From contig JAVZCV010000002.1 in the NCBI GenBank assembly GCA_038874215.1, forward strand, positions 6,664 through 70,663: a stretch of DNA of 64,000 nucleotides, read 5' to 3'. The stretch is from Candidatus Micrarchaeia archaeon. GTDB lineage: Archaea > Micrarchaeota > Micrarchaeia > Burarchaeales > JAVZCV01. How positions within the stretch are numbered: the first letter of the stretch is position 1; every line of letters starts with the position of its first letter. This document shows positions 1,003 through 35,905 of the stretch, piece by piece. Both the position numbers and the translations under genes were made by a program. A model generated the notes under the pieces. The model was not told the origin of the DNA. It did no database searches and saw nothing but the letters and a program-made list of their open reading frames with translations.

Positions 1003-1015
1003 GAAAACCAACGAA

Positions 1016-1027
1016 AAGTTTATATAG
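1016..1027 (+). promoter_or_regulatory. Putative TATA box (aagtttatatag) for flaB2, about 55 nt upstream of the ATG. A ggaggga RBS lies at 1071..1077.
   Basis: An A/T-rich 8-mer is followed by a purine-rich SD-like sequence. Confidence 0.3.
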
Positions 1028-1081
1028 TGCGTAATGTTATTCCATTAGGAAAGCAATAAGAAAAAGGGAAGGAGGGAGAAC

Positions 1082-1675
1082 ATGCAATATAAAAAGGGTG
1101 CTGTTGGTATCGGAACTCTGATAATCTTCATAGCGATGGTCCTTGTGGCCGCAATCGCCGCAGCCGTTTTGATAAACGTTTCTGGCATACTGCAACAGAG
1201 GGCAATGTCCACGGGCAAAGAGGCAATAGCCCAAGTCTCATCAAACATAATAGTAACATCTATATCTGGGAAAACCAATACTAATAAGACGAACATAGAT
1301 AATCTCACCATAACCATTTCTGCGGCGGCAGGCGCTGGAAGGATAGACATCGGCAAAATGATTCTGAAGATTAGTAACGGGGATAACCAGACAGAGCAGA
1401 AATACAACGGGACCATAAACAATCCGGATGGTGCTCACTTCACCGCAACAGCTCTCAGAGACCCGACAGGCCTATTTACTAAAGAATTGCCCGTGATAGA
1501 CTCAAGCAGCTTAATTCAATTGCATGTTGTGCCAAGCAACGATACAACCCCTGTCTATCTGCCACCAAGAACGCCATTGCATATAGAGCTCATCCCAGAG
1601 CACGGTGCATCTGTTACGATAGATTTAGTAACGCCTTCAACATACCCAACTACCCTCCAGCAACTTTATCCATAA
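1082..1675 (+). CDS. flaB: Archaellin FlaB paralog 2
   Basis: The N-terminus MQYKKG|[34 protein letters not shown] follows the same pattern. A ggaggga RBS sits 4 nt before the ATG. The first ~150 nt of the ORF are nearly identical in nucleotide sequence to the other two paralogs. Confidence 0.9.
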   Translation: MQYKKGAVGIGTLIIFIAMVLVAAIAAAVLINVSGILQQRAMSTGKEAIAQVSSNIIVTSISGKTNTNKTNIDNLTITISAAAGAGRIDIGKMILKISNGDNQTEQKYNGTINNPDGAHFTATALRDPTGLFTKELPVIDSSSLIQLHVVPSNDTTPVYLPPRTPLHIELIPEHGASVTIDLVTPSTYPTTLQQLYP

Positions 1676-1685
1676 ACAGTCAGCC

Positions 1686-1702
1686 TTTTATTCTCCTTTT
1701 TT
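1686..1702 (+). terminator. Oligo-T tract (ccttttattctcctttttttaat) downstream of flaB2. It may act as a partial archaeal terminator.
   Basis: A T7 run sits within a pyrimidine-rich stretch 10-25 nt after the stop. Confidence 0.3.
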
Positions 1703-1723
1703 TAATCTATCTTAGGTAATCCC

Positions 1724-2311
1724 ATGGAAATCATAACTATCTTCAAGAAGGCACTTGGTTTACAAAAGGACGAAAAGGAAAGCGAAGAGAAAAAAGAGCA
1801 AGAGGCAAGTGCGAGTGAGATTGAGGTAGAGTTACCAGAAGGGGGCGGAATTTTTGATACGGAGGAGATAGACTCCTTGAAAAAAGAGCTCAGTGCAAGC
1901 GGTTCAAAAATAAGCGATCTGGAAGGAAAGCTGGTAAAGATAGAGGCCCAAAACCACCAAATCCAGAAAGAGATAGACGCTATAAAAAAACGCATGGATG
2001 AAATAGACGCAAGAATAATTGAAATGATGTCCATATACGAGGTAGTTTCAAATCAAATAAACCCCTTTGTAGGCGAAACTAAAAATGTGAGTGCAAACGT
2101 AATCGAAGTTAAGGCGGAGCTTGAAAAACTTCGTGAGCAGGTTTCTGTTCTTGCAGCAGATGTTCGTATAATGGCGAGAAGCAGGATAAATATAAGCAGG
2201 GTTATAGAAGAAGTTCTGAGCACGCCGCCAAAGAAAAAAACCGTTGATCTAAGTAAATTGATAAAAACCGCCATACAGGAGAAGAGGAGGGATAATCTTG
2301 GTGCAGAGTGA
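1724..2311 (+). CDS. flaC: FlaC/D/E-family archaellum accessory protein (FlaC-like coiled-coil protein)
   Basis: An acidic, heptad-rich coiled-coil precedes a conserved ...MMSIYEVVSNQINPF... segment typical of the FlaC/FlaD/FlaE domain. The gene lies directly downstream of the archaellin genes and overlaps the next gene by 14 nt. Confidence 0.6.
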   Translation: MEIITIFKKALGLQKDEKESEEKKEQEASASEIEVELPEGGGIFDTEEIDSLKKELSASGSKISDLEGKLVKIEAQNHQIQKEIDAIKKRMDEIDARIIEMMSIYEVVSNQINPFVGETKNVSANVIEVKAELEKLREQVSVLAADVRIMARSRINISRVIEEVLSTPPKKKTVDLSKLIKTAIQEKRRDNLGAE

Positions 2312-3002
2312 TGAACCAACTGGAAGAGGCAGTGAGCGCATTCTGACACCAGACGAAATAGAAGCAAAACTTTCGGTTTATCAATCACGCTTGCCCTCAA
2401 CTGTTATAGAAGAACTTCTTCGCTATCTGAAAACGATGAAGCTCAGCGAGTCAAAAGTTGATGAAATAATATCGCGTGTGGCATCAAAATACAGCGGCGA
2501 AGATGTATCCGAACAGATAGACTCCCTCTCATCAAAACTTGATACTCTGAGCGCAACAGTTTCACGCATGGTTGCAGCAATAGAGAAGGAGCGCTCATAT
2601 TTGGAAAGAGAACCAACCCCGCCCACCGAAGAAGTTCCAGAAGCCGAGCCAAAAACTCCCTTCCTTTCAAGCCTTAGGGAGGATGCAGTGACAAGAACGC
2701 TTTTTCTGAAATGGGTTGAGTTCCTTCTTTCACGTGTTGGGCATGAGCGGCTTGATGAGGCTCTAAACTTTTATGTTGACATAGGCTGGATAACTGAGGA
2801 AATAGCGATGAAAGCACTCGCATACTCCAAGGGAATATCAACAAAGAAAGGCAGAAAATCATCAAAATTAACGCCAGAGGACCATCTTCGTACCCTCATA
2901 TTTCTAGAGCGGTTAGGCGGTAAAAAAATAGACGAAAATCTAATAACGAAAGCAGAGCGGGAAATAACATACCTGCTTGAAAAAAGACTGCGGAGGCCTT
3001 GA
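2298..3002 (+). CDS. flaD: FlaD/E-family archaellum protein
   Basis: The C-terminal ...TRTLFLKWVEFLLSRVGHERLDEALNFYVDIGWITEEIA... matches the conserved FlaD/E C-terminal domain. The position (after flaC, before flaF/G) fits. Confidence 0.65.
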   Translation: MVQSDEPTGRGSERILTPDEIEAKLSVYQSRLPSTVIEELLRYLKTMKLSESKVDEIISRVASKYSGEDVSEQIDSLSSKLDTLSATVSRMVAAIEKERSYLEREPTPPTEEVPEAEPKTPFLSSLREDAVTRTLFLKWVEFLLSRVGHERLDEALNFYVDIGWITEEIAMKALAYSKGISTKKGRKSSKLTPEDHLRTLIFLERLGGKKIDENLITKAEREITYLLEKRLRRP

Positions 3003-3049
3003 ACGACATGCCTCTAAATATTTAAATAGAAAATAACCTATTAAGATGC

Positions 3050-3490
3050 ATGGGTCTGAGCACGGTAGCAACATTCGCACTTTTTGCACTCGCCTTAATC
3101 TCTATCGTACTTGTCTCCTACGCCATAATCAACGAATCTGCTAAGACAACCGTTGAAGCGATACGGGAGGAGCACAATCTTTTTAGGCTACGGCAGGCAA
3201 CAAGCATAAAAATAAATAACATAAGCGTTAGCGGTATTTGCACAAACTATAATCTCACCATATCCGCTACGAATATGGGCAGCATAGCGCTTGACAGGGC
3301 TAAGATGAACATACTTGATAACGGTGTTCTTATAAACAACACTATGAGGGGAGCGTGGGCACCAGGAAGTGATATATATCTCAACTACACAGAGATGAGT
3401 ACTATGGCAAGCAACCACACAATAAAAATAGTCACAGAAAATGGCGTTTCGGCAATCGGAAAGTATAACCTAACCGATTGCGAGATATAG
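3050..3490 (+). CDS. flaF: FlaF/FlaG-family archaellum stator-like protein (FlaF by position)
   Basis: A single N-terminal TM helix (LFALALISIVLVSYAI) is followed by an N-glycosylation-rich beta-rich domain of about 15 kDa. The gene order fits euryarchaeal flaF-flaG, and the gene overlaps its neighbour. Confidence 0.5.
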   Translation: MGLSTVATFALFALALISIVLVSYAIINESAKTTVEAIREEHNLFRLRQATSIKINNISVSGICTNYNLTISATNMGSIALDRAKMNILDNGVLINNTMRGAWAPGSDIYLNYTEMSTMASNHTIKIVTENGVSAIGKYNLTDCEI

Positions 3491-3963
3491 GTGAAAATTT
3501 GGGGTTTGACACGTCCTTCACGCATGCCATGTTTTTCATAGCGTCAATAGTTGTCGCAATCGCGGTTATATCTGTTCTGTCAACATCTATAAACACTATT
3601 AACAATAGCATAACAGTTCGTACCAACACTTTGGCTGCCCAGATAAGGACTGACATAACCATAATAAACGATCCCTGCTTTGTGAACCGTTCTATTTTTG
3701 TCAAGAATACTGGTAAAACAATATTGAACGCAAAGCTTGTAGACATATACGTTGATGGGAACTACACCCAGTATGATGCAGTAAGCATTCTGCGGAGTCC
3801 TACTGGTGTATGGGAGCCCTACAACGAAAGCAATGGATGGCGCCCGCAAGAGGTCGTGAATTTCTCTTTTTCGTATCCATTGCCTGCTGGAACGCATACG
3901 CTGTTCGTGAGAACGGAAAATGGCGTATACGATAAAATGCTATATACGAACGAGACATGCTAG
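3478..3963 (+). CDS. flaG: FlaF/FlaG-family archaellum protein (FlaG by position)
   Basis: An N-terminal TM helix (FFIASIVVAIAVISVL) precedes a beta-rich domain. The gene overlaps the flaF-like gene by 13 nt. Confidence 0.5.
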   Translation: MRDIGENLGFDTSFTHAMFFIASIVVAIAVISVLSTSINTINNSITVRTNTLAAQIRTDITIINDPCFVNRSIFVKNTGKTILNAKLVDIYVDGNYTQYDAVSILRSPTGVWEPYNESNGWRPQEVVNFSFSYPLPAGTHTLFVRTENGVYDKMLYTNETC

Positions 3964-4008
3964 ATGCGCACACCAACATTAAAAAACAACTAAAAGAAAC
4001 AATATACC

Positions 4009-4446
4009 ATGAGAGCACAGGTTTCCTTTGAATACATTTCGCTTTTCACGCTCCTACTTATTCCACTCGCAGTCGCTTTCCTCTATTCTTATGCCGCTGT
4101 TTTCCAAGCAACATCCGCTTACAAAATAGAAACAAGCCTTGATAAGCTTGCCCAAAATGCAGAAGAACTGTATGTGCAGGGGCCAGGCGCCAAATCCATA
4201 GTAACAATAGACCTGCCTAGCGGCATAAATGCCCATGGTTCATTTATAGGGAATTCTTCGGGCGGACCGGGTCGCTACATTATGCTTAATTTCTCGGGTT
4301 CAAATGCCGTGAGAATTACCCGCGCAACCGTCCAAGGATACTGGCCAAATACTACGGGTGGCTATGTTCGACCAGGCATACTGCAGATGAACCTAACCGT
4401 TGATAATAACAACATTGTTATTATGAGACCGTTGAGGAGTGGTTAA
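4009..4446 (+). CDS. Small class-III-signal-peptide (prepilin-like) protein, function unknown
   Basis: The N-terminus is MRA|QVSFEYISLFTLLLIPLAVAFL: a short basic leader, Q at +1, E at +5 and a hydrophobic helix. This is the type IV pilin / class III signal pattern. It is first of three consecutive such genes. Confidence 0.5.
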   Translation: MRAQVSFEYISLFTLLLIPLAVAFLYSYAAVFQATSAYKIETSLDKLAQNAEELYVQGPGAKSIVTIDLPSGINAHGSFIGNSSGGPGRYIMLNFSGSNAVRITRATVQGYWPNTTGGYVRPGILQMNLTVDNNNIVIMRPLRSG

Positions 4447-4827
4447 ATGCGGAGAGGACAGGTTGGTACCGAATACATAGCCGCATTTACTCTTTGGGTG
4501 ATGGTGTGCGTAATAATAAGCTACACCCTCTCTTCGTATTCCCTTAGCTTAAAGGAAAGTAGGGATACGAATGCCCGCAACACGATTCTTGGGCATTTTT
4601 TTTCTCTTGCCGATGATGCAACAGAACCCTCAACAAAAATCTCTGGCATTTTTTTAGAAGACTACAACATAACCTTCTTTGGTAATATTGGCAGCCTCTC
4701 TTCACGAAATAAGACCACACTCGGCTACACAACGGCAAATTTTACGTATTCTGACACAATAGGGCGTGGCGATACTTTCCTAATCAAAAATGTCAACGGC
4801 ACATTTCTCCTAATAAAAGAAGAATGA
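4447..4827 (+). CDS. Small class-III-signal-peptide (prepilin-like) protein
   Basis: The N-terminus is MRRG|QVGTEYIAAFTLWVMVCVII. The start lies 1 nt after the previous stop. Confidence 0.5.
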   Translation: MRRGQVGTEYIAAFTLWVMVCVIISYTLSSYSLSLKESRDTNARNTILGHFFSLADDATEPSTKISGIFLEDYNITFFGNIGSLSSRNKTTLGYTTANFTYSDTIGRGDTFLIKNVNGTFLLIKEE

Positions 4828-4834
4828 TGGTGTT

Positions 4835-5326
4835 ATGAAACGAGCGCAGATTGCCACTCTTGACATGCTGCTTGCGATTACGGTACTTCTACTCATCGTT
4901 TTTTCCTTCATCATGTTTCTTATTGTTGAGATGCATGAGAAAGATAAAAAAAGCCATGCAGATTCCGAAAGAATCCTTTCAGCATTGGTTGGAAGCTCTG
5001 GCAAACCGTCAAACTGGACGAGCACCCACTTCATAATCCCGGGGCTGAAATGCGGGCAAGGCGTCGTTTGCGCAAATAAAATCAAAGAGCTCAATAATTC
5101 ATGCGGTTCCTCATCGCAATCCGGCTATGTTTCTGTTAAAAAAAGCCTCGGCATACCCACACAATACTACCTGATAGGATACTATGCCAGCAATTCAGAA
5201 AGATGCCTGTGTGGTTGCGATCTTTCAGAAAGAAGAAATACTGCATTGGAAGTTTCAAAATCAAGCCTCCTCGTTTCATTGGACAATAATATAACACGTC
5301 TCTCAATCTATTTATGGAACAGATGA
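4835..5326 (+). CDS. Small class-III-signal-peptide (prepilin-like) protein
   Basis: The N-terminus is MKRA|QIATLDMLLAITVLLLIVF. A Cys-rich, N-x-S/T-rich C-domain follows. Its stop abuts the flaJ stop on the opposite strand. Confidence 0.5.
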   Translation: MKRAQIATLDMLLAITVLLLIVFSFIMFLIVEMHEKDKKSHADSERILSALVGSSGKPSNWTSTHFIIPGLKCGQGVVCANKIKELNNSCGSSSQSGYVSVKKSLGIPTQYYLIGYYASNSERCLCGCDLSERRNTALEVSKSSLLVSLDNNITRLSIYLWNR

Positions 5327-7000
5327 CTAAACTATTGTGGGTGCTGGCAGAACTGCTGCAAGCATCAAGTCTACAATCACTGCGGTTATCGCCCCCGTCC
5401 ACGTCAGACCCACGAAATGAAGAAGCGAGTTTGTCAGGTGTCCGCCATCTATTAATCTTATGGCAACCGCCGAGAGTAGCGCATTAGCAAGCAGTATTAT
5501 GAGCAGAAGAAGAGATATAACCTCAAGAGTATGGCTCTTTGGCAGCATTATCAGGCTCGTGAAAACTGACTCTGGTATCTCCATGCTCGTGTATAATTTA
5601 TTTAGGTAAACCAATATGCCATTTGATACGTATATGCAGAAGATTACGCCTGCCTGCAACCCATACATTATCCCTATGAAGCTCGTTGTGGCGTGATAAC
5701 GCTCACGCCTTAACATCTGTAATTTCATGAAATTTCTGCCTATCATCTGAGCTACTGCGTTTGGTTTTCCACCAAGCCCTATCGCCTCAATAAACATCTC
5801 GCTAAACCTGCTTATCAGATAGCTGCCTGCCTCTATTCTAAAAAAATGCCATGCTTGGAAAACATCTATATTCGTCTTGATACGCTCAAACAAGTTTTTT
5901 ATTATCGGCGTTAAAGGCCCGAAGTCATGATAAGCCAAAGATTTGAGAGCACCGCGCATAACTCCGCCGCGTGCAGCCGTTTCAAGCCCAAGCGAAATTA
6001 TGAATTCAACGAAAAACATGTCCCTGCGTTTTATTAATTCCTCTATACTCCTTGCAACATAACCGACACCAACAAGCGGCGTTATTGTCAGCGCAGCCAT
6101 TATCGGTGCTGGCAGTCCCCTCCAATATGTGTTGATAATGAGCGATACAAAAACTATCCCCACAAGAGATACCGCAAAGGCAGGAAGAATCTGCCTCCTC
6201 ATCTCGTTGTTTGCGTATTCGGTGTACCATATTCTATCTTCTGGCAATATACTCTTTATATAATAAACAACCCCCAACTCTGCAACAGCATAGAGAATCA
6301 TAACGAAACCTATTAGGACTGTGGGGTCAGTACCGCTTATATACGGAATTACGATTGCAAACGAAACGAGAAAAACAAGCGTTATCACCATAGATGTATA
6401 AACCTCTTTCAATACATCAACATCATAGAGCGCACCACGGTATCTTATTGAATAATCGCTTAGGACGATCTCCTGCTCCTCGCCAAGGAAAACTTCTATG
6501 TTCTCCCCAGCTTCCAATGCGTTTGCAAACCTATCCAGAAAATCTGCAAATATTATACTCGGGGTTTGCCTTGCCTCTATCCTGCACGCATCTGCGAGTG
6601 TCGTCCTCCATACAGAGAAGCGCAGGTATATGTTCCTGCACGAATCAGCAAGAGCGCCGTACTCCTTTCTAGCTGCCATAACTCTAAAAAGCTCCCCCGT
6701 TGGTACCTCACATGTAGAAAGTGCACCCATCTGCGTTACAAAAAAATGTATGTTGTTTTCAATCTCCGTCTTAACATTTTCTGCCAAAAGATAAGGGTAG
6801 ACAAGCACAAGCGCCACTACGAGAAAAGGAAAAGCAAAAAGGAAGACGAGAAAAATGCCCGTGAAAAGTTGTGGGACAAGAAAATAAACCACTACTGAAG
6901 TTAGAAGAGATAAAACAAAAATAGGCAAAACAACCTGTGTGAGGTAGTCATAAAGGGTATACCCAACATTTTTCACAAGGTCGGCATACCCCTCTACCAT
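5327..7000 (-). CDS. flaJ: Archaellum assembly polytopic membrane protein FlaJ (TadB/C-like)
   Basis: 557 aa with about 9 predicted TM segments and two cytoplasmic domains. It lies directly downstream of, and 2 nt from, flaI on the same strand. Size and topology match FlaJ. Confidence 0.8.
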   Translation of the reverse strand: MVEGYADLVKNVGYTLYDYLTQVVLPIFVLSLLTSVVVYFLVPQLFTGIFLVFLFAFPFLVVALVLVYPYLLAENVKTEIENNIHFFVTQMGALSTCEVPTGELFRVMAARKEYGALADSCRNIYLRFSVWRTTLADACRIEARQTPSIIFADFLDRFANALEAGENIEVFLGEEQEIVLSDYSIRYRGALYDVDVLKEVYTSMVITLVFLVSFAIVIPYISGTDPTVLIGFVMILYAVAELGVVYYIKSILPEDRIWYTEYANNEMRRQILPAFAVSLVGIVFVSLIINTYWRGLPAPIMAALTITPLVGVGYVARSIEELIKRRDMFFVEFIISLGLETAARGGVMRGALKSLAYHDFGPLTPIIKNLFERIKTNIDVFQAWHFFRIEAGSYLISRFSEMFIEAIGLGGKPNAVAQMIGRNFMKLQMLRRERYHATTSFIGIMYGLQAGVIFCIYVSNGILVYLNKLYTSMEIPESVFTSLIMLPKSHTLEVISLLLLIILLANALLSAVAIRLIDGGHLTNSLLHFVGLTWTGAITAVIVDLMLAAVLPAPTIV

Positions 7001-7002
7001 CT

Positions 7003-8640
7003 CTACACCGTTGGGAGGGAGTCAATACCCTCTTCATAGTATCTCACAAACATTTTGAGAACACTGTCGTAGTCAAATATTTTCTTTGCATACATTGCAT
7101 CAAGCACTCTTTTTCTCTTCTCAAGTTCTATGTAAACCATTCTCTTCTCAGCATAACCCGCCATCGGGGCTATTTTCTCTTCAAGTATGTAGCTGTTGTG
7201 CAGTCCAAGGAACCTATGTTCATCCCTGCTTCCATCCCATTCAAACATCTGCTTCGTTATAACACCCCCCGCCTCCTCCGAATAGCCCTCTATTTCCTCT
7301 ATTGAAATACACCTTCTCTGGAACCTGCCTTTTATATAAACTGCCTGCAGGATTGCAACAACATGCAGGTTATCCATAAAAGTTATTGGTATGTTAATAG
7401 GATTGCCAACAAGCCTCTGTATAAGTCTCCTGACGCTTCCTGCATGGAATGTGGCAAGAACAGAGTGGCCTGTTTGCATCGCTTGAAATGCGACAGAGCC
7501 TTCAACACCCCTTATTTCCCCAACAATTATGTAATTGGGCCTTGAACGCAGGGCTGCTTTTAATATAGAGAACATATCGACTCTTGATTCTTCTGGTCCT
7601 GTAGTCCTCGTTACAAGCCTCTGCCATATTTTATGCGGCGGCCTAACCTCTGGCGTATCCTCAGCGCTCAATATCTTCAAGTCTGGTCTTATCATTGGTA
7701 AACATGCGTTAAGAAATGTAGTCTTGCCGCTTGCCGTTTCTCCTGAGAAGAATATATTCATGCCGTACTCTAAGCATATCCATAGGTATGCTGCCATCTC
7801 AGTGCTTATTGTACCAAGCTTTACCAAGTCCATTATGCTCATTGGGACTGCGGCAAATTTCCTAACCGTAAAACTCGGGCCTCTTATGCTTATATCATCA
7901 GCATATATTATGTTTATCCTGCTTCCATCAGGAAGCACGGAGTCCGCTATCGGCCTTGCAACACTGACAGGATGCCCTATTCTCTCGCTCAGGTTGCGGA
8001 GATATTCCCCAAGGTATTGGAGATTATCAAACTTAAGGTTTGTTATAAGCGGGCCGAATATCTTATGCACCACGCCTATCTCGTTCGTGCCAACTACGTG
8101 TATGTCTTCAAGGTTCCAGTCATCTACAAGTGGTTGTATAAGCGCATGCCCTATTATGTCTCTTTTCAGCTGATAAATAAACTTCACGTACTCTTCATCT
8201 GTTACATAAACCTTCTTCGTTCCCCAGTCTCTAAAAGTCAGCCTTGTGCGCTTAACGCTTTTTTCATATAGCCTTAAAAGAGTCTTTTCAAGTTCTTTCT
8301 CGTCCTCAGGAACTTCCTCTCTCGGTGCATTCTCAAGTATTGCATTCAGAATGCGTCCATACTTCGTTCTCTCAGCTTGTGTTAGTTGGGGTTGTATAAC
8401 CTCATATCTTCTAATGTGTTTATCTATAAAAATATGAACGAAAACATGTTCGCCCGCAGGATATATTATATTAACGAACGGTTCGTCCCCAAGCTCTCTC
8501 GTGAGCCTCTCGTAAAACCTCGGAATGCGCCCCGTCTCCTTCTTCAACCTATCAATATACTGCCGCAGGTGTGGCTCCTTTTTTATTGCCTCATCAAATT
8601 CCACAACCCCACCTAAACATACGAGATGCTGTCCTCGCAT
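7003..8640 (-). CDS. flaI: Archaellum ATPase FlaI (VirB11/GspE secretion ATPase superfamily)
   Basis: Walker A is SGETASGKTTFLNA, Walker B/Asp box is ...ILSAED.... The 545-aa size, the FlaI-type N-terminal domain and the adjacency to flaJ all fit. Confidence 0.9.
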   Translation of the reverse strand: MRGQHLVCLGGVVEFDEAIKKEPHLRQYIDRLKKETGRIPRFYERLTRELGDEPFVNIIYPAGEHVFVHIFIDKHIRRYEVIQPQLTQAERTKYGRILNAILENAPREEVPEDEKELEKTLLRLYEKSVKRTRLTFRDWGTKKVYVTDEEYVKFIYQLKRDIIGHALIQPLVDDWNLEDIHVVGTNEIGVVHKIFGPLITNLKFDNLQYLGEYLRNLSERIGHPVSVARPIADSVLPDGSRINIIYADDISIRGPSFTVRKFAAVPMSIMDLVKLGTISTEMAAYLWICLEYGMNIFFSGETASGKTTFLNACLPMIRPDLKILSAEDTPEVRPPHKIWQRLVTRTTGPEESRVDMFSILKAALRSRPNYIIVGEIRGVEGSVAFQAMQTGHSVLATFHAGSVRRLIQRLVGNPINIPITFMDNLHVVAILQAVYIKGRFQRRCISIEEIEGYSEEAGGVITKQMFEWDGSRDEHRFLGLHNSYILEEKIAPMAGYAEKRMVYIELEKRKRVLDAMYAKKIFDYDSVLKMFVRYYEEGIDSLPTV

Positions 8641-10313: not shown

Positions 10314-11009
10314 ATGGCACTTCCGCTTTCATTTAAGATAGAAGTTGACGATTTGGACAAGCGCCTTGGAGGCGGAATACCAAAAGGTTCGCTTGTGCTG
10401 ATAGACGGCGAGCACGGGACTGGCAAGAGCGTTTTAGTCCAGAGGCTTGCATACGGATTTCTCCAAAATGGGTACTCCGTTACTTTTATCTCAACACAAC
10501 TCACAACCAAGGATTTCATAAGCCAGATGTATTCACTTGGCTATGATATTCTGAAATACCTCTCAAAAAACAAACTGCTCTTCATCTCTGTTTTTCCACT
10601 TTTGGGCGAGCACAAAAAAGAAGACGTCTTCTTTAAAAAGCTCGTAGAAACGCAGGAACTTTACAAAAACGACATCATTTTCATAGATACGCTCTCCTCA
10701 ATAATACGATACTCCTTGGATTTGGGAAAAATAGACGATTTAATCGGTTTCTTTAAAAGGCTGACGGGCATAGGTAAAACCATATTCGTAACGCTCGGAG
10801 AAGGAGACCTTGACTCCATGATAGTGGGCGAACTCGTATCAAGTGCTGACATCCACATAACCATGAAGGCGAAAACATTCGGCGAGGATATAAAGCACAT
10901 GCTCGTGATTAACAAGTATGCAGGAGCCCTTCAGCCATACAGCACAATGACTGGCTTCCGCATAGTCCCGAAAATAGGTTTCGTAATAGAAATCGCAACA
11001 GTTGCTTAA
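10314..11009 (+). CDS. flaH: Archaellum protein FlaH (KaiC/RecA-like ATPase)
   Basis: Walker A is GEHGTGKS. The fold is a single KaiC-like domain of about 230 aa, which is typical of FlaH. It lies next to other fla genes. Confidence 0.8.
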   Translation: MALPLSFKIEVDDLDKRLGGGIPKGSLVLIDGEHGTGKSVLVQRLAYGFLQNGYSVTFISTQLTTKDFISQMYSLGYDILKYLSKNKLLFISVFPLLGEHKKEDVFFKKLVETQELYKNDIIFIDTLSSIIRYSLDLGKIDDLIGFFKRLTGIGKTIFVTLGEGDLDSMIVGELVSSADIHITMKAKTFGEDIKHMLVINKYAGALQPYSTMTGFRIVPKIGFVIEIATVA

Positions 11010-11747: not shown

Positions 11748-12347
11748 ATGAGATTTGATAAAAATACCAAACGTGGTGCGGTTGGTATCGGAACTCTGAT
11801 AATCTTCATAGCGATGGTCCTTGTGGCCGCAATCGCCGCAGCCGTTTTGATAAACGTTTCTGGCATACTGCAACAAAGGGCGATGACGACGGGCAAAGAG
11901 TCAATAGCGCAGGTTTCATCCAACCTGATAGTAACAGGCATAACGGGCTATACTGATGATAACAGAACAAACATAGAGAACATAAGTATCTATATAACTG
12001 CGGCATCTGGTGCGGGGAGGCTTGACCTACGTTATCTCATAATGAAAGTAGGCAACAACATTAACGAGACACCGCAACGCTACTCAAATGTCTCATCGGG
12101 TGATAGCAATTTCACTGCGCAAGTGCTCAGAGATCCTGCAAACTTATTCACACCGAATAACCCGGTGATAGACTCTACATCTTTAATAGAGCTTAAAATA
12201 ATACCAAGCAACGATACAACTTTTGTTTCCTTGCCCCCACGGTCTCCGTTTCACATAGAGCTTATCCCAGAAAGGGGCGCACCACTCGTGATAGATACGA
12301 TGACACCAAGCACTTATGCAACCAACATTCAACACCTCTACCCATAG
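11748..12347 (+). CDS. flaB: Archaellin FlaB paralog 3
   Basis: The N-terminus is M.FDKNTKRG|[35 protein letters not shown] gaggtg RBS precedes it. The 5' ~150 nt are nearly identical to flaB2. It has the conserved C-terminal block. Confidence 0.9.
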   Translation: MRFDKNTKRGAVGIGTLIIFIAMVLVAAIAAAVLINVSGILQQRAMTTGKESIAQVSSNLIVTGITGYTDDNRTNIENISIYITAASGAGRLDLRYLIMKVGNNINETPQRYSNVSSGDSNFTAQVLRDPANLFTPNNPVIDSTSLIELKIIPSNDTTFVSLPPRSPFHIELIPERGAPLVIDTMTPSTYATNIQHLYP

Positions 12348-18196: not shown

Positions 18197-19732
18197 TCAC
18201 TCCAAAAGTGCTCTCTTGACCTCTTTTATCCCTATCGCTTCTATCAGCCTCCCCATACGGGGTCCCCTCTCCTTGCCAATCAGCGCCATGTAAAGCATCT
18301 TGAACAATTCGCTTGGTTCCATACCATTCTCTCTGGCAAATTTAAAAACACTATTGTGGATTTCAACCGCACTCATCCCCTCCTGCAAACTTCTAACGAA
18401 CTTTTTAACCTCCTCGCTTGGCTTCTGCGGGTTAAAAGAGAAAGAGTATTCTTCTGGTGCATATCCTTCCTTTATCCAGTTCTCTATGTATTTTTGCAGG
18501 TTCTTCGCCCCTTCCTTATCCCCAATGAGTTCTCCAACCTTCTCCCAATTTTTGTAGAGCTGATAGTAGAGGAGAAAATCTGTGAACTGCGCTGAAAACA
18601 ATTTGCTTTCGCAGGCAAGCTGGAAGGCAACAAGTTTTTTTCTATCTGCACGTGAAAGCCCACCATTATCTGAAAGGGAGCTCGCATACAAAAAATCGTT
18701 GTAAAGGTCTATGAGCTTGTATCCTGAGGGGTCAAAATCTATATTTTCTTCAAGGTCAGGCCTAAAGAGCGCATACTTTATAATTTCGGGAGGAACAAGG
18801 GAGAGCAATTCCCTGACGCCCATGCCTTCCCCTTTTGATTTTGAGTATTTTTTTCCTTTGAAGAGAATAAAACCAAATTTATACCCGATTGGCGGCTCTT
18901 TGCAAAATATGCGCTTATGAACTGCTTTTGCAGTATCCCAAGAGCCACCCCTCGTCATGTGGTCTACCCCGGCGCCTTCTATACTTGCATGAAGGAAATC
19001 CTGTCTTGATGGCCAGTCAAGCCGCCACGTCACCTTGTATTCATGCTCCTCTATCCTGCCCTCGCCAACATGGCCGCAGCCCTCGATCTCGCCTTTACCC
19101 ACGCACTCATACCTGTATGCCCCGCTTTTCCACTCCAAAACCCTTGTTGTTGCCATCTTCCCGCATTTTTCACAAATGGGCATCAGGGGGCTCCAATACT
19201 CCCCCGAATCCTTGCGAAGAGAAGTCTCAAAAACGAGCTTCCTCATTTCCTCCTGACTCTCCATAAACATTTTAGCATACCTATCATACATGCCCGCCGC
19301 ATACATCTCATTTGCCCTCATTATCTCAGGTGATACCCCAAACTCCTGCATTATCTCAACCGTTTCCATGAGAAAATGTTCGCCAAAAGAATTGTGGCAA
19401 CCAAGAGGGTCTAACACGTTGCATAAGGGCTTTCCAAGCTCGGGAATAAGACTACGCTCGTGCTCTTTCATCGCAACGGGAACCGAGTCAAACGCATCCA
19501 TTATATCAGCTATGAAAATAAACCGTGCTTCATGCTCTCTTGAAATGTACTTGTGTATCGCAGACGGAAAAAGAAATTCGCAAAGCGTTCCCAAATGGCA
19601 TGGGCCACTTGTTGTTATTCCCGAAAGAACAACGTAAGGCGGTTCCTTCTCCTTTACAACCCTCTCAGCCAGAACCTCTGCCCAGTGCCTGTTCTCCCTC
19701 TCCCCTATCTTTCCACTTCTCTCTCTTTCCAT
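18197..19732 (-). CDS. lysK: Lysyl-tRNA synthetase, class I (archaeal type)
   Basis: HIGH-like ...SGPCHLGT... and KMSKS-like ...KYSKSKG... are present, as is a Zn-finger-like Cys cluster (CEKCGK...CGH). It is 511 aa. Confidence 0.8.
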   Translation of the reverse strand: MERERSGKIGERENRHWAEVLAERVVKEKEPPYVVLSGITTSGPCHLGTLCEFLFPSAIHKYISREHEARFIFIADIMDAFDSVPVAMKEHERSLIPELGKPLCNVLDPLGCHNSFGEHFLMETVEIMQEFGVSPEIMRANEMYAAGMYDRYAKMFMESQEEMRKLVFETSLRKDSGEYWSPLMPICEKCGKMATTRVLEWKSGAYRYECVGKGEIEGCGHVGEGRIEEHEYKVTWRLDWPSRQDFLHASIEGAGVDHMTRGGSWDTAKAVHKRIFCKEPPIGYKFGFILFKGKKYSKSKGEGMGVRELLSLVPPEIIKYALFRPDLEENIDFDPSGYKLIDLYNDFLYASSLSDNGGLSRADRKKLVAFQLACESKLFSAQFTDFLLYYQLYKNWEKVGELIGDKEGAKNLQKYIENWIKEGYAPEEYSFSFNPQKPSEEVKKFVRSLQEGMSAVEIHNSVFKFARENGMEPSELFKMLYMALIGKERGPRMGRLIEAIGIKEVKRALLE

Positions 19733-19773
19733 ACCTTCCTATTGTCCGCGAAAGTTTATATTTGCGCCACAAA

Positions 19774-19862
19774 AGCGGGCCCGGAGGGATTTTCGCGTCC
19801 TATTTCGAACCCTCGACCTACTGGTTAAGAGCCAGCCGCTCTGGCCAAGCTGAGCTACGGGC
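19774..19862 (-). tRNA. tRNA-Lys (anticodon CTT) with a ~14-nt insertion/intron in the T-loop
   Basis: On the - strand the sequence is GGGCCCG-TA-GCTC-AGCTTGGCCA-GAGC-G-GCTGG-CTCTTAA-CCAGT-AGGTC-GAGGG-TTCGAA[ATAGGACGCGAAAA]T-CCCTC-CGGGCCC-G. All stems pair and the anticodon is CTT. The T-loop is 21 nt instead of 7. Confidence 0.8.
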
Positions 19863-19899
19863 CCAGATTATAAACTCTTCCATATAAACAATAATAAAC

Positions 19900-20421
19900 A
19901 TGCATGTAAGCGTCCTAAGGCTTGGGCACAGAATAAAGCGTGATGAGCGGGCAACAACACACGTCTGTCTTGTTGCTCGCGCTTTCGGAGCAAGCGAGGT
20001 ATTCATAAGCGGGGATAAAGATACGGCTCTAATAGAGCGAATAGGCAAAATGCAGGAGAAATGGGGGTTTGGGATAACAGTAAAGCACGTTAAAAATTGG
20101 CGCGAAGTTTTGGATAACTGGCACGGAATAAAGGTTCATCTAACAATGTACGGTCTTCCAGTTTCCCACGTTCTTTCTGAGATAAAGAAGGCGGAGAACA
20201 TTCTCGTAATTGTTGGGTCCCAGAAAGTGCCCCCCGAAATTTACAAGAATGCCGATTTTAACGTTTCTATCACGAACCAACCCCACTCCGAAATAGCAGC
20301 CCTCGCAGTCTTCCTTGACCATCTATTTGAAGGAGCCGAGCTAGAACAGAACAGCTTTAAGAATGCAAAGCACAGAATAATTCCCTCGGCGCGTAGCAAA
20401 TTGATACGAAGGTATTTATAA
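19900..20421 (+). CDS. trm56: tRNA (cytidine56-2'-O)-methyltransferase aTrm56 (SPOUT)
   Basis: ...LRLGHRIKRDERATTHVCLVARAFGA..., ...VHLTMYG... and ...NQPHSEIAALAVFLD... match aTrm56. Confidence 0.85.
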   Translation: MHVSVLRLGHRIKRDERATTHVCLVARAFGASEVFISGDKDTALIERIGKMQEKWGFGITVKHVKNWREVLDNWHGIKVHLTMYGLPVSHVLSEIKKAENILVIVGSQKVPPEIYKNADFNVSITNQPHSEIAALAVFLDHLFEGAELEQNSFKNAKHRIIPSARSKLIRRYL

Positions 20422-28002: not shown

Positions 28003-28959
28003 CTAACTATCCGCTCTTATATTTAAAATTCTCCCCCTATCACTTTTTTTATCCCTGCATAAAAGAACAACCCTGCTTGGCTCATATTCCGCAGATACGA
28101 TATAGCCACACACCTCTGCAAGTTCTTTGGCGAAAGCTCTTATCTCGTCATGTGTTGGCATATTGTTGAGGCTGAGCCCCCTACGCGGGTCCCGAGCCCC
28201 GCCAACATACACGAAGCTCTTAACCTCAACATATTCTGGCAGTGCTTTCTCAATGAGCTTTGCGTAACCTGCGGCATCAAGCATGTTATGCCCTTTTACA
28301 AGCGTCATTCTCAGAACGCGGCGCGTTGGCATGCTGTTTAAAATCTCCAAAGTTTCGTTGAAATTCACCCATGCTCTCTGGTACTTAGGGGCGCAAATAC
28401 GGCGATACACCTCCTCGTTTGGTGCGTTGAGGGAAACATAAAACTGGGTAGGCAGCCTTTCAAGTTCTGCAATTTGTTTGGGAAGCGTTCCGTTCGTAAC
28501 CAAAAATGTTGTCATCCCCCTCCTCCAGAACTCCTCAATCAATTCAGACATATGTGGGTAAAACATTACCTCCCCAGTAAGGCTTATTGCGGCATGCTTC
28601 GGGTTTTTAGCTTCCTCCCACATCCCTTTGCTAACCCTCTTATTCCCCCCATAACCCGATACTATCCTAAGATGTTCTGCAATAATCCATTCAACAACAT
28701 CAGCAGCTTCATCCCATTTAGCAGGGAGGTTCTCTTTTTCATCGGGCATAATCCGCCAGCAGAATATGCAACCCATGTTGCAGTATGTTGCAACAGGGGT
28801 GCACTGGATACATCGGTGGCTTTCTATCCCGTAAAAAGCATTCTTGTAGCACTTTTTCCCTTTGACAAGGGCATCGTGGAGCCATTTGCATCCCTTTACT
28901 GCGCTATGCCCGCCTGCGAAATGGTACTCTTGGTTTTTCATCCTCTCCATCAAACCCAT
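28003..28959 (-). CDS. taw1: tRNA 4-demethylwyosine synthase Taw1/TYW1 (radical SAM). Start uncertain between 28941 and 29016.
   Basis: ...GCKWLHDALVKGKKCYKNAFYGIESHRCIQCTP...CNMGCIFCWR... matches the two-cluster radical-SAM signature of archaeal Taw1. Confidence 0.8.
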   Translation of the reverse strand: MGLMERMKNQEYHFAGGHSAVKGCKWLHDALVKGKKCYKNAFYGIESHRCIQCTPVATYCNMGCIFCWRIMPDEKENLPAKWDEAADVVEWIIAEHLRIVSGYGGNKRVSKGMWEEAKNPKHAAISLTGEVMFYPHMSELIEEFWRRGMTTFLVTNGTLPKQIAELERLPTQFYVSLNAPNEEVYRRICAPKYQRAWVNFNETLEILNSMPTRRVLRMTLVKGHNMLDAAGYAKLIEKALPEYVEVKSFVYVGGARDPRRGLSLNNMPTHDEIRAFAKELAEVCGYIVSAEYEPSRVVLLCRDKKSDRGRILNIRADS

Positions 28960-28992
28960 GCGTTTTTTATTTTTCACATCATATTTATAGGC

Positions 28993-30150
28993 ATGGCGGT
29001 CCAGCTTGAGGTTCATGGGAAAAAAATAATCGTGCGCGATCCCGCTTCTGTCTCTTCACTTCAAAAGGGTTTCTATGGTGTGATGCACAAAGGCGTAATC
29101 ACCCTCTTCCCCGAGGAAGCCCTTTATCTCATAGATATAAGGAATGCAAAATGCTACGATAAAAATGGGAACGCGCTAAAATTCAACGATGTTGCCCAAA
29201 TTTTCAAAAAGAAGAAACTACTCGCCCGCTACTTCACCTATAAAGATTGGCGCGACAGAGGGCTCATAGTTCGTCCTGTTGAAGAGGCTACGGGTAACTA
29301 CGGGAGGAATCCTGTCAAAAAATATCCCATGCGCGAGTTTGAACCTCCAAAATACTCTGTTGATGGGGTCTTCTTCCCAGATGATCTTTTTACAATAATA
29401 GATGACGAAGTTGTCGGCAGAGAGCTGTATGAGAACTACTGGCTTGGCCAGTTTGCCTCATACAAAGCAGAACAAAGGGGCAGAGTAGCGAAACTTGACG
29501 CCTACGAGACTCTTTTCATGCTGAGGCACTGCAACCTCTCCCTCCATAACTCTGATGAGGAGAAGGTTATCAAGAACGCTACAAAAAGAAGAAGCGATTT
29601 CATGCTGATGTACGAGGTTTATGAGGATTGGAGGCTTCGTGGCTATATACTAAAAACTGGTTTCAAGTTTGGCACGCACTTCAGGCTCTATATGCCAGGC
29701 GCATCACCAGTTAAAAAAGGCGACGAATGGATACACAGCAAGCATGTAATCCACATATTCCCGCGTTCCAAAAAAATGATAATCTCTGAATGGGCGAGAG
29801 CAATACGGGTTGCACACAGCGTAAAGAAGACTTTTATACTTGCGATACCAGGCGCGAAGAAGAAGCACAGTTTGAAGAAACCCGATTTTCTTCTTTATCA
29901 TCGCCACAAAACAGGCATAGAGACCCCAGATACAGGAAAGCCGAAGTTTCTCATGCTATCCCTAAGCGAAGAGGAGTACATAGGGGGTGAAGAACTCGCA
30001 GATGCTATAGAAATCGCAAAGAGCTTTGGGCTTGACCTAATGCTCGCAATAGCGGATAGGGAAAGCTCTGTTACTTACTATCGTGTAAGAAGGATAGAGT
30101 TGCAGGGCAGCAAATACGAATATTACGAGATAGAATGGGAGCAACCATAA
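28993..30150 (+). CDS. endA: tRNA-splicing endonuclease EndA, long single-chain form with duplicated/extended architecture
   Basis: The N-terminus MAVQLEVHGKKIIVRDPASV...VITLFPEEALYLID is like the EndA N-domain. A degenerate repeat is YKDWRDRGLIVRPVEE. The catalytic repeat is YEDWRLRGYILKTGFKFGTHFRLY...HSKHVIHIF...RVAHSVKKTFILAIPG, containing a Tyr/His/Lys triad. There is an extra ~75-aa C-terminal segment. Confidence 0.8.
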   Translation: MAVQLEVHGKKIIVRDPASVSSLQKGFYGVMHKGVITLFPEEALYLIDIRNAKCYDKNGNALKFNDVAQIFKKKKLLARYFTYKDWRDRGLIVRPVEEATGNYGRNPVKKYPMREFEPPKYSVDGVFFPDDLFTIIDDEVVGRELYENYWLGQFASYKAEQRGRVAKLDAYETLFMLRHCNLSLHNSDEEKVIKNATKRRSDFMLMYEVYEDWRLRGYILKTGFKFGTHFRLYMPGASPVKKGDEWIHSKHVIHIFPRSKKMIISEWARAIRVAHSVKKTFILAIPGAKKKHSLKKPDFLLYHRHKTGIETPDTGKPKFLMLSLSEEEYIGGEELADAIEIAKSFGLDLMLAIADRESSVTYYRVRRIELQGSKYEYYEIEWEQP

Positions 30151-34067: not shown

Positions 34068-34616
34068 ATGAAGTTCTCACTCACTGAGACTGCTTTAATC
34101 GCCTTTTTCGCTTTTTTCATCATCTTTCTGGTGGTTGTTTTAACTTCAACCCCCCCAAAAAGCGTGGCCGCATACAAGCTCTACTCAATAAAACCCGACC
34201 TTGAATATACCTACATCGTTCTGTCAAAATCTAACTCATCCCAAATTACCAAAATATCCCGCCACGTGCTGGGCGCAAGCGATGGCTACTGGATCATTGA
34301 TACGAGTCTGGAGGGCGGTGAAAAAATTCGTACATGGGTAAGCAAAAGCACACTCGTCTGTGCGAAGGCAATCCTCATATTCGGAAGCAGGGAAAAGGAG
34401 GCAGTATGTCCTGAACCTTTTTATAACGAAGAACTGCTACACGGCGGCAGAGAAAAAATAAACTTCAGCATGGGCTCATTCGTAGCGGATGTGTACTCCT
34501 CAAAAGACGGCAAGCTTCGTTTCTGGCAGGTCCCAGAAATCCCTGTTCCAGTGAAAATAGACTTGGGAGAGAATATTCTTCTTCTTGAAAACTGTACACA
34601 CCCCCCACATATTTAG
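34068..34616 (+). CDS. Hypothetical N-terminally anchored extracellular protein
   Basis: One N-terminal TM helix, then a soluble domain. Confidence 0.35.
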   Translation: MKFSLTETALIAFFAFFIIFLVVVLTSTPPKSVAAYKLYSIKPDLEYTYIVLSKSNSSQITKISRHVLGASDGYWIIDTSLEGGEKIRTWVSKSTLVCAKAILIFGSREKEAVCPEPFYNEELLHGGREKINFSMGSFVADVYSSKDGKLRFWQVPEIPVPVKIDLGENILLLENCTHPPHI

Positions 34617-35905
34617 ACTGTATAACTCTCAAGGTTTGCTGGGACCACAACGTCATACCCATACTTCTCAAGACTCTCTTTAAGCTCGTATGGCTTTCTT
34701 TCATCTCCATGGACTATGAAGATTTTCTTGAGACCCCGTATACTCCTCGCGAAACTTACGAGCCCCTGCCTATCTGCGTGTGCGCTGAGCTCAAACTTTA
34801 CAACCTCCATATTAACATTGATTTCATCCCCCCCGATAATCACCCTCCTCTCCCCATCAAGCAGTTTCCTACCCAATGTTCCCTTTGCCTGATACCCCAC
34901 AAGAGCGAGCGTGTTTTTCGGGTCCGCTGCGAGCGCTTTCAGATACCCCACAACAGGCCCCCCTGTGAGCATACCAGAACTTGCGACTATTATCCCTCCT
35001 TCCCCAAGCACGTCGCTCCTATCTTTTGTTTTGGGCATCCTGAAAAATCTACTTTTGAAAGGATCATCGTCGCTCATGAGAATGCGGAGTTGTATCTCCC
35101 TCCGCGCGTATATCACGTTTTGCCTATATATCCTGTTTGCCTTTATTATCATCCCATCAACCCATATAGGCACCTTTTTTATTACCCCAGAACGCATGTA
35201 GCTTTCAAGAGTTATGAGAACCTCTTGCCCCCTCCCAACCGCGAAAGATGGTATTAAGACTACTCCGCCCCTGCTTATAGTCCTGTTTATAGTTTCACAA
35301 AGTTTTGCAAATTCACTTTTTGCGGGAGGATGTTTATCCTCAAAACCGCCATATGTGCTTTCAATTATCAGCGTATCCGCGCGTATACCAGTCTCAGCAC
35401 CTTCAATGAGCCTTGAACCCTTAATCTCTATATCTGAAGTGTATAGGATGTTCTTATCCGCACTGAGCTTTATCATAGCCCCTCCAAGGATATGCCCAGA
35501 CCTGCGGAATTCTGTTTTTATGCCCCCCCCAAACTTAGCGCCGTATTCCACGATCGCACAGCGGCGCATAACTTCTTCTATCTCCTTATCAGAAACTGCC
35601 TCCGGGTTTATTCTTCTATAATCAGCAAGAAGCAGATGCATGAGATCCCGCGTAGGCTTTGTTGCATATATGCTCGCTTTGCAGCCTCTCCTCATGAGCA
35701 TAGGTAGATAGCCCGCATGGTCTATATGGGCATGACTGACCACAACCCTCCGCGTTCTTTTTATAAGCCCATCGTCCAGAAGAGGATACTCTTCTCTCTC
35801 CCCCAACTTTATCCCACAGTCAAGCATAACCGCTGTTCTCTTTTCTTCTGCAAGGATGCAGCTTCTGCCTACTTCGCCCGCACCGCCTAAAAACGTGAGT
35901 TTCAT
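34613..35905 (-). CDS. beta-CASP metallo-beta-lactamase-fold ribonuclease (aCPSF2/RNase J-like)
   Basis: HxHxDH (VSHAHIDHAG) is present, along with beta-CASP motifs further C-terminal. Probable start at the internal Met MKLTFLGGAGEVGRS. Confidence 0.8.
   Translation of the reverse strand: MKLTFLGGAGEVGRSCILAEEKRTAVMLDCGIKLGEREEYPLLDDGLIKRTRRVVVSHAHIDHAGYLPMLMRRGCKASIYATKPTRDLMHLLLADYRRINPEAVSDKEIEEVMRRCAIVEYGAKFGGGIKTEFRRSGHILGGAMIKLSADKNILYTSDIEIKGSRLIEGAETGIRADTLIIESTYGGFEDKHPPAKSEFAKLCETINRTISRGGVVLIPSFAVGRGQEVLITLESYMRSGVIKKVPIWVDGMIIKANRIYRQNVIYARREIQLRILMSDDDPFKSRFFRMPKTKDRSDVLGEGGIIVASSGMLTGGPVVGYLKALAADPKNTLALVGYQAKGTLGRKLLDGERRVIIGGDEINVNMEVVKFELSAHADRQGLVSFARSIRGLKKIFIVHGDERKPYELKESLEKYGYDVVVPANLESYTV

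Follow-up and report, generated by a model that had tools for sequence, protein, structure and literature searches.

In this study, we have analyzed 64,000 nucleotides (nt) of DNA from an uncultivated Candidatus Micrarchaeia archaeon (assembly GCA_038874215.1, contig JAVZCV010000002.1, positions 6,664 to 70,663), referred to here as the window, with attention to a tRNA-Lys(CTT) gene whose T-loop is interrupted by 14 nt and which lies just upstream of lysK, the gene for lysyl-tRNA synthetase (LysRS). These 14 nt very probably constitute an endonuclease-dependent archaeal intron that interrupts a functional tRNA-Lys(CUU) gene at the noncanonical position 59/60. The evidence consists of the anatomy of the gene, the motif at its splice junctions, the presence of a splicing endonuclease in the same window, and exons that are conserved among relatives while the introns turn over.

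The insertion in the T-arm of tRNA-Lys(CTT)

On the minus strand, the 5' half of the gene reads GGGCCCG-TA-GCTC-AGCTTGGCCA-GAGC-G-GCTGG-CTCTTAA-CCAGT-AGGTC-GAGGG, and the T-arm and 3' end read GAGGG-TTCGAA-ATAGGACGCGAAAA-T-CCCTC-CGGGCCC-G; the discriminator is G73, and no CCA is encoded. The unspliced T-loop has 21 nt in place of the usual 7, and the remainder is a complete tRNA. When the 14 nt are deleted in silico, the loop becomes a normal TTCGAAT, each of the 21 stem pairs is standard, the T-loop and D-loop keep their conserved residues, and ARAGORN calls a tRNA-Lys(CTT). A 14-nt insertion in a 21-nt T-loop had been reported in a preliminary description of this DNA and is borne out by the sequence and by the in silico excision; the 5' end of the tRNA, given there as 19862, was 2 nt short and is corrected to 19864.

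Standard searches pass over the gene. ARAGORN found no tRNA in the 64-kb window and, with its intron options, made no call on the unspliced gene; likewise, Rfam at the gathering threshold gave no match in the window. An Rfam scan by E value returned RF00005 at 26.9 bits (cutoff, 29); this match was confined to the sequence 5' of the insertion, which had been forced to fit the full-length model. These misses are limits of the tools and are no evidence against a tRNA-Lys gene. The whole-window E-value scan revealed no further hidden tRNA, and tRNA-Lys(CTT) is the only tRNA-like sequence that any scan of the 64 kb produced; the sole other Rfam match, c4-a1b1 (20 bits, E = 1.3), was set aside as noise.

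We enumerated all combinations of cut sites that leave a T-stem of 5 bp and a TTCRAnn loop of 7 nt; there are five such registers, from 56/57 to 60/61. Only register 59/60 combines a fully paired central helix (4/4) with a 5-bp outer helix and the bulges AA↓A and AA↓T, where the arrow marks the cut; in the other registers, the central helix is only 1-3/4 paired, and the outer helix is absent. In the 59/60 register, the 3' splice site lies in a 3-nt bulge, AA↓T60 (19789-19791), that adjoins the T-stem strand CCCTC (19784-19788). At the 5' splice site, A58, A59, and the first A of the intron follow the 5' strand of the central helix and lie within a 10-nt loop, as no more than one U.G pair can form in the inner helix. 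The minimum-free-energy (MFE) fold of the T-arm plus intron, (((((((((..........))))...))))), has an ensemble frequency of 0.79, and for both the pre-tRNA and the isolated T-arm, the MFE and centroid predictions give a helix-bulge-helix (hBH) structure at 59/60.

With an inner helix of at most one U.G pair, the structure lacks the second flanking helix (h') of a strict hBHBh' bulge-helix-bulge (BHB) motif; the strict reading was therefore ruled out, and the motif is a relaxed hBH, or bulge-helix-loop (BHL), form. Thus, the BHB-like motif that the preliminary description proposed to look for at the junctions is present, in relaxed form, and its proposal of an intron at 59/60 is supported, as far as sequence analysis goes, by a unique splice-site solution.

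A splicing pathway can be envisioned on this basis. In the precursor, the T-stem (GAGGG/CCCUC) would stack on the 4-bp helix that U54-G57 form with the intron CGAA; this relaxed hBH motif would amount to the architecture of a 37/38 anticodon-arm intron, moved to the T-arm. The splicing endonuclease encoded by the same genome, EndA, a predicted epsilon2 homodimer, would cut at A59↓A and A↓U60, its specificity-loop lysine permitting relaxed motifs, and an RNA ligase would then join the exons to give a normal UUCGAAU T-loop. Because C56 is base paired in the central helix of the precursor, its methylation by aTrm56, tRNA (cytidine56-2'-O)-methyltransferase, presumably takes place after splicing.

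The preliminary description had argued that a relaxed-specificity endonuclease would be needed, and an epsilon2-type EndA is indeed encoded in the same window, about 9 kb from the tRNA-Lys gene. It matches TIGR00324 at 108.6 bits (cutoff, 59.6) and, over residues 6-387 of 395, PDB entry 4FZ2, the EndA of ARMAN-2 (phmmer E = 3e-138); the two proteins are 53% identical by BLASTP over 383 aligned columns with 2 gaps. In ARMAN-2 EndA, Y236, H251, and K282 are catalytic, and K161 in the ARMAN-type loop enables the cleavage of relaxed motifs (Hirata et al. 2012, PMC3488258). The catalytic triad corresponds to Y233, H248, and K279 in the window EndA, and the specificity-loop lysine K161 corresponds to K158 (ASYK versus GTYK). 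From these residues, the window EndA is predicted to be the enzyme that removes the 14-nt intron, acting as a homodimer.

The open reading frame (ORF) that contains EndA is longer, 532 aa (28552-30150); however, its first ~147 codons overlap TYW1 on the opposite strand and have no counterpart in 4FZ2, and the start was therefore moved to the ATG at 28993. This ATG is the likely start, and gene finding by longest ORF would mis-call it. The overlapped gene, TYW1/Taw1 (28062-28950, minus strand; TIGR03972 at 379 bits), is a radical-SAM gene of wyosine synthesis and is divergent from EndA.

These data are in keeping with what is known of the phylum. ARMAN-2 (Candidatus Micrarchaeum acidiphilum) has a pre-tRNA-Cys(GCA) with a 13-nt hBH intron at 59/60 that is cleaved in vitro by ARMAN-2 EndA (Fujishima et al. 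2011, PMC3239211). The ARMAN-2 and window introns agree in phylum, insertion point, length (13 versus 14 nt), relaxed hBH motif, and use of the T-stem as the outer helix, and both hosts have the epsilon2 EndA compared above, with its specificity-loop lysine conserved. They differ in the tRNA, which is Cys(GCA) in ARMAN-2 and Lys(CUU) in the window, and in that the window intron is predicted from sequence. Furthermore, the hosts belong to different genus-level lineages; the window LysRS is 100% identical to an NCBI lysine--tRNA ligase of a Candidatus Micrarchaeia metagenome-assembled genome (MAG), and only 61% identical to the next closest database LysRS. Since a 59/60 hBH intron has already been shown to be cleaved within the phylum (PMC3239211), the window intron is to be expected rather than exceptional. 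The insertion is real, and its reading as an intron is well supported; the mechanism would be the known epsilon2-EndA pathway, and such an intron, ordinary for its lineage, would not surprise a specialist.

The preliminary description had placed 59/60 introns mainly in Thermoproteales and a few deep-branching lineages. The noncanonical status of the site stands, since 59/60 is among the known noncanonical tRNA intron positions (review, PMC4090602); the lineage needs correction, the host here being not a member of Thermoproteales but a Candidatus Micrarchaeia archaeon. The noncanonical introns of Thermoproteales and other Crenarchaeota resemble that of the window in their 59/60 site, shortness, relaxed motif, and rapid gain and loss (PMC4090602). 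Unlike the window, with its predicted epsilon2 homodimer and ARMAN-type loop, those archaea have an (alpha-beta)2 heterotetrameric EndA with a Crenarchaea-specific loop; the two types of loop are regarded as convergent, and the strict-specificity alpha4 and alpha'2 enzymes barely cleaved a relaxed-motif substrate (PMC3488258). Compared with the canonical 37/38 hBHBh' intron, the geometry relative to a 5-bp stem and a 7-nt loop is the same: nucleotides one to four of the loop are paired with intron bases, and each cut falls after the second nucleotide of a 3-nt bulge. The differences are that the window intron is in the T-arm and that h' is missing.

Orthologous loci and rival readings

A 4-bp complementarity is weak evidence by itself; the argument for an intron is carried by comparative data. 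Related loci, designated by L numbers, were taken from a LysRS-alignment scan of GTDB species representatives (the best 80 of 257 loci, Micrarchaeota), and in at least 15 of these 80 Micrarchaeota loci a tRNA-Lys gene lies upstream of LysRS on the same strand. At a single orthologous tRNA-Lys(CTT) locus, introns range from 0 to 112 nt and are found at 59/60, at 30/31, at 37/38, and in the D-loop (Table 1). Those at 30/31 in L004, L006, and L015 are 13-15 nt long; in Nanoarchaeum equitans and Staphylothermus, tRNA-Lys(CUU) is encoded by two separate genes that divide the tRNA at this same position (PMC4090602).

The exons present a different picture. In an alignment of 12 sequences spliced in silico (the window gene and 11 syntenic orthologues), mean column identity was 92%, the cloverleaf was paired in 98.6% of cells, and five pairs showed compensatory changes; the T-stem that flanks the intron was 100% paired, with compensatory changes in three of its pairs. 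The covariation score was reached by none of 500 shuffles, and slid controls fell to 27-50% paired. Since the exons are conserved, whereas the insertions vary or are absent and retain only the ends that form the splice motif, the insertion behaves as an intron and not as an expanded T-loop.

One metagenome scan with the pattern GAGGGTTCGAA-N(5-35)-TCCCTCCGGGCCCG produced 17 additional contigs. Two of them, L093 and L097, contain a 34-nt intron with the same TTCGAA and CGAAAA↓T ends, and L093 has divergent aTrm56/TFE-alpha neighbors as in the window. Fourteen contigs from a different archaeal lineage (within L082-L092, L094-L096, and L098) carry 21-23-nt tRNA-Lys(CTT) introns at 59/60 with a full hBHBh' motif, in which the 5-bp inner helix shows compensatory substitutions (GATTC/GAATC, GGTTT/AAACC, GGTTC/GAACC, and GACAG/CTGTC). 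L090, a tRNA-Arg(TCG), contains an hBH intron of 13 nt that ends in CGAAAA↓T. The ending CGAA-AA↓T is thus common to the window, L003, L093/L097, and L090, and position 59/60, with a TTCG/CGAA helix, appears from these sequences to be a recurrent insertion site.

Two side observations concern these loci. In the lineage with 21-23-nt introns, a P-loop NTPase gene follows tRNA-Lys(CTT) in the 14 contigs. In L002 (3294-3528), the D-loop and T-loop introns jointly hold three copies of a palindromic element of ~45 nt (AACCCTTTTTCGGCGCTCCGAAAAAGCGTTGACGGAAAAAGGG), which look like intron sequence duplicated or transposed within one gene.

Several points count against an intron and have to be set beside this evidence. 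The inner helix is essentially missing, which makes the motif the weakest acceptable form; the 4-bp complementarity alone would, by our own estimate, arise by chance with a probability of ~1/32; and the folding z-scores, -1.2 for the T-arm with its intron and -1.8 for the pre-tRNA, do not stand out. In L016 and L023, the insertions at the same site have a central helix of only 2/4, and the simple geometry fits them poorly. No RNA ligase (RtcB) was found in the 64-kb window, and we infer cleavage and ligation in vivo from the sequence. Finally, the part of the genome inspected was 64 kb, and a second, intronless copy of tRNA-Lys(CUU) is possible beyond it.

Such a second copy would leave room for the gene in the window to be a disabled pseudogene, the functional tRNA-Lys(CUU) being encoded elsewhere in the genome, and standard tRNA finders do reject the gene. 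However, its exons are intact, with every stem pair and the conserved T-loop and D-loop residues in place; its splice motif is intact as well; upstream of it, a promoter-like TATA box is found where one would be expected; and the conserved syntenic slot beside aTrm56 and LysRS holds a tRNA-Lys(CTT) in at least 10 related genomes. We therefore consider a pseudogene quite improbable. Retention of the 14 nt in a mature tRNA-Lys, as a 21-nt T-loop or a hairpin-extended T-arm, is more improbable still. The insertion does fold as a compact extension of the T-arm; however, locking U54, U55, C56, and G57 in a helix would abolish the tertiary interaction between T-loop and D-loop, orthologues hold 0, 24, 34, or 112 nt at this point with no conservation of sequence except in the splice-motif ends, and a dedicated broad-specificity EndA is present. 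That the insertion, which comes from a MAG, is an assembly or sequencing artifact has next to no probability, since a separate Logan assembly (run SRR30574052) matches without a difference across 5,565 bp, the insertion included, albeit possibly from the same reads, and homologous insertions occur at the same site in several other assemblies and metagenomes.

Linkage of tRNA-Lys to LysRS

The LysRS encoded by lysK is of class I (PF01921 at 268.1 bits, cutoff 27; TIGR00467 at 310.7 bits, cutoff 147.55), and its start is fixed at the ATG at 19732 by an in-frame TAG at -9 to -7, three codons upstream. The tRNA gene and lysK are co-oriented, and the spacer between them, which begins with CTTTT, is 43 nt long (tRNA end at 19776, ATG at 19732) and not 41 nt as first described. 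The cognate linkage to which the preliminary description drew attention is real and is conserved in related genomes of a Micrarchaeia subclade; in the open-access literature, we found no description of a linkage between tRNA-Lys and LysRS1 genes.

In Methanosarcina, pylT, the gene for tRNA-Pyl, lies immediately upstream of the synthetase gene pylS. The arrangement is alike in that an archaeal cognate tRNA gene is directly upstream of, and co-oriented with, the gene for its synthetase. Unlike pylT and pylS, which are a dedicated orthogonal pair and travel together as a cassette, the pair in the window is a housekeeping tRNA-Lys and LysRS.

The genes around the pair in the window are archaeal (thermosome, polyprenyl synthase, aTrm56, TFE-alpha, and NreA). 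The gene for aTrm56 is divergent from tRNA-Lys(CTT) in the window and in L002-L004, L006, L008-L010, L012, L015, L051, and L093, with 5' ends 32-73 nt apart, and this pairing is more widely conserved than the linkage to LysRS. A larger block, in which TFE-alpha and aTrm56 point one way and tRNA-Lys(CTT), LysRS, and polyprenyl synthase point the other, is found in L002-L004, L006, L008-L010, L012, and L015. What lies between the tRNA and LysRS differs: there is nothing in the window, L016, and L023; a 250-aa gene with a metallo-beta-lactamase fold similar to that of RNase Z (best match TIGR02651 at 136 bits, below the cutoff of 293; e.g., L010 3241-3993) in L004, L006, L009, L010, L012, and L015; and a VKOR gene on the opposite strand in L002 and L003. 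The best explanation is that the neighborhood was inherited from an ancestral cluster in which TFE-alpha and aTrm56 diverged from a series of tRNA-Lys, the RNase Z-like gene (in some members), LysRS, and polyprenyl synthase.

The RNase Z-like gene is also upstream of LysRS in L013, L021, and L026, and is absent from the window; in the six loci with the gene between tRNA and LysRS, a nuclease of the tRNA 3'-processing type would be encoded directly behind a tRNA.

In the relatives, the distances are short. LysRS starts 12 nt past the tRNA in L016, 9 nt in L023, and 13 nt in L048, and the RNase Z-like gene starts 14-24 nt past it in the six loci listed above, often with a GGTGAT that resembles a Shine-Dalgarno sequence. 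Spacers of 9-24 nt leave no room for a promoter, and the downstream ORFs are therefore presumably transcribed through the tRNA gene. L048 differs in other respects: its tRNA is tRNA-Lys(TTT) (3892-3966), a different isoacceptor with a distinct D-arm sequence; its LysRS, with a GTG start, begins at 3980; and aTrm56/TFE and the other flanking genes of the window are absent. This may be an independent juxtaposition of a cognate tRNA and LysRS, and it suggests that such an arrangement has arisen, or been kept, repeatedly.

The situation in the window itself was assessed by counting A/T heptamers by position relative to gene starts; a sigma-70 scanner is inappropriate for archaea and was not used. 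A heptamer centered between -32 and -21 was found in 26 of the 45 window genes whose upstream gap is 35 nt or longer, compared with 4 of 45 for a control interval, which is the pattern expected of leaderless archaeal mRNAs. Upstream of lysK, the box AAATATAAA lies at -27, the modal promoter position of this genome. On the other side of the tRNA gene, TTTATTAT sits in the 35-nt intergenic region that tRNA-Lys shares with the divergent aTrm56 gene. The TTTT run that follows the tRNA may be a weak archaeal termination signal; however, relatives in which co-transcription appears forced carry T-runs at the same position too. An independent, leaderless lysK promoter in the window is probable, and read-through from the tRNA promoter may occur as well.

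The preliminary description had suggested that the tRNA and synthetase genes may be co-transcribed. For relatives with spacers of 9-24 nt, this is nearly forced; for the window, CTTTT and AAATATAAA favor a separate promoter. A single transcription unit in the window, from which the tRNA would be released by RNase P and RNase Z and which would couple the supply of tRNA to that of synthetase, competes only with the independent promoter and is compatible with the intron. In its favor are the common strand and the 43-nt distance, the closeness of LysRS to the tRNA in L016, L023, and L048, the RNase Z-like ORFs of six relatives, with their Shine-Dalgarno-like GGTGAT and no room for a promoter, and L048, whose other isoacceptor and gene context argue that the juxtaposition is not merely inherited synteny. 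Against it stand not only the CTTTT and the promoter-like box of the window spacer but also the two closest relatives, L002 and L003, in which VKOR splits the tRNA from LysRS and co-transcription must therefore be dispensable; moreover, the flanking synteny is conserved as a block, so that the linkage is explicable without selection. We regard a single unit in the window as possible but doubtful.

A broader proposal, which we make tentatively and consider unlikely, is that in this Micrarchaeia subclade tRNA-Lys and lysK, in some members with the RNase Z-like gene, form a selected co-transcribed unit. End processing of the tRNA would then release the synthetase mRNA and couple tRNA supply to its own synthetase. 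Genes for two different isoacceptors precede LysRS by 9-43 nt, each in a gene context of its own (CTT in the clade of the window and TTT in L048), and by our own rough estimate such a juxtaposition would be expected by chance at ~5e-5 per genome. If a selected unit does exist, then the window would represent a derived state, in which lysK has gained a promoter of its own or has kept one as well.

Table 1. Coordinates of features in the window, followed by insertions in tRNA-Lys at related loci (coordinates of L016 and L023 refer to the stretch of the respective locus that contains the insertion; arrows mark cut sites)
Feature	Position	Strand	Basis
lysK, class I lysyl-tRNA synthetase, 511 aa	18197..19732	minus	PF01921, TIGR00467
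TATA-like box AAATATAAA, centered ~27 nt upstream of lysK ATG, preceded by GCGC	19755..19763	minus	A/T heptamers centered -28..-26
TTTT run, one base past tRNA 3' end	19771..19774	minus	sequence read
pre-tRNA-Lys(CTT) gene, 89 nt	19776..19864	minus	sequence read, ARAGORN after excision, Rfam partial match
3' exon, positions 60-73, T CCCTC CGGGCCC G	19776..19789	minus	splice-site solution, exon alignment
Intron ATAGGACGCGAAAA, 14 nt, between positions 59 and 60	19790..19803	minus	excision test, folds, orthologue comparison
Central helix, 3' strand, CGAA inside intron	19792..19795	minus	folds, geometric scan
5' exon, tRNA positions 1-59, ending GAGGG TTCGAA	19804..19864	minus	unique splice-site solution, exon alignment
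Central 4-bp BHB helix, 5' strand, T54 T55 C56 G57 of exon	19806..19809	minus	MFE fold, geometric scan
Candidate TATA box of tRNA gene, TTTATTAT, -34..-27	19891..19898	minus	inferred from position only
aTrm56, tRNA (cytidine56-2'-O)-methyltransferase	19900..20421	plus	PF01994, 147 bits; NF003048, 209.5 bits, below cutoff of 223
EndA, epsilon2-type (three-unit alphaN-alpha-betaC) tRNA splicing endonuclease, 385 aa	28993..30150	plus	PF01974, PF02778, TIGR00324, 4FZ2
L002: 112-nt intron at 59/60 (central helix 3/4, inner helix 4 bp) and D-loop intron			
L003: 24-nt intron at 59/60, full hBHBh' (central 4/4, inner helix 3 bp, TTCG/CGAA, AA↓T), and D-loop intron			
L004: intron at 30/31 and apparent second intron at about 38/39, same anticodon stem			
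L006, L015: intron at 30/31			
L008, L009 (the latter Ca. Fermentimicrarchaeum limneticum Sv326, CP058998): intron at 37/38			
L010, L012: intron absent			
L016: 37-nt insertion at the 59/60 point, central helix poor (2/4)	3875-3985		
L023: 110-nt insertion at the 59/60 point, central helix poor (2/4)	353-536		

Implications and other genes of the window

Two things appear to go beyond the published, open-access work that we found. One is a conserved neighborhood of a cognate tRNA and LysRS with apparently obligatory co-transcription in relatives; the other is the range of positions that introns occupy at a single orthologous locus. The syntenic tRNA-Lys(CUU) locus in about a dozen Micrarchaeia genomes provides a natural series for the gain, loss, and movement of introns under an epsilon2 endonuclease. 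Likewise, the linkage to LysRS, together with the very short spacers between tRNA and ORF, makes tRNA-mRNA co-transcription in DPANN archaea directly testable. There is also a practical consequence: since ARAGORN and Rfam at the gathering threshold miss this tRNA-Lys(CUU), automated annotation of this MAG may list it as absent, and annotation gaps of that kind can feed false claims of reduced decoding capacity in DPANN archaea.

Several other genes of the window deserve mention. An archaellum gene cluster (400-8640 and 11748-12347) comprises at least four flagellin-family genes, FlaC, FlaD/E, a FlaI-like T2SSE ATPase, and a FlaJ-like T2SSF protein; a KaiC-like ATPase is encoded at 10314-11009, and a type IV prepilin peptidase is encoded at 56758-57618. 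Together, these genes point to motility or pili in this DPANN archaeon. A 430-aa beta-CASP ribonuclease (34613-35905, minus strand) matches positions 176-628 of the aCPSF1 profile (TIGR03675) at 393 bits against a cutoff of 580 and has no region matching roughly the first 175 profile positions. A small gene at 40392-40784 (plus strand) has a match to "putative phage metallopeptidase" (PF18894), and a stand-alone tRNA-binding domain protein of 113 aa, similar to the C-terminal domain of MetRS, is encoded at 43146-43487 (minus strand).

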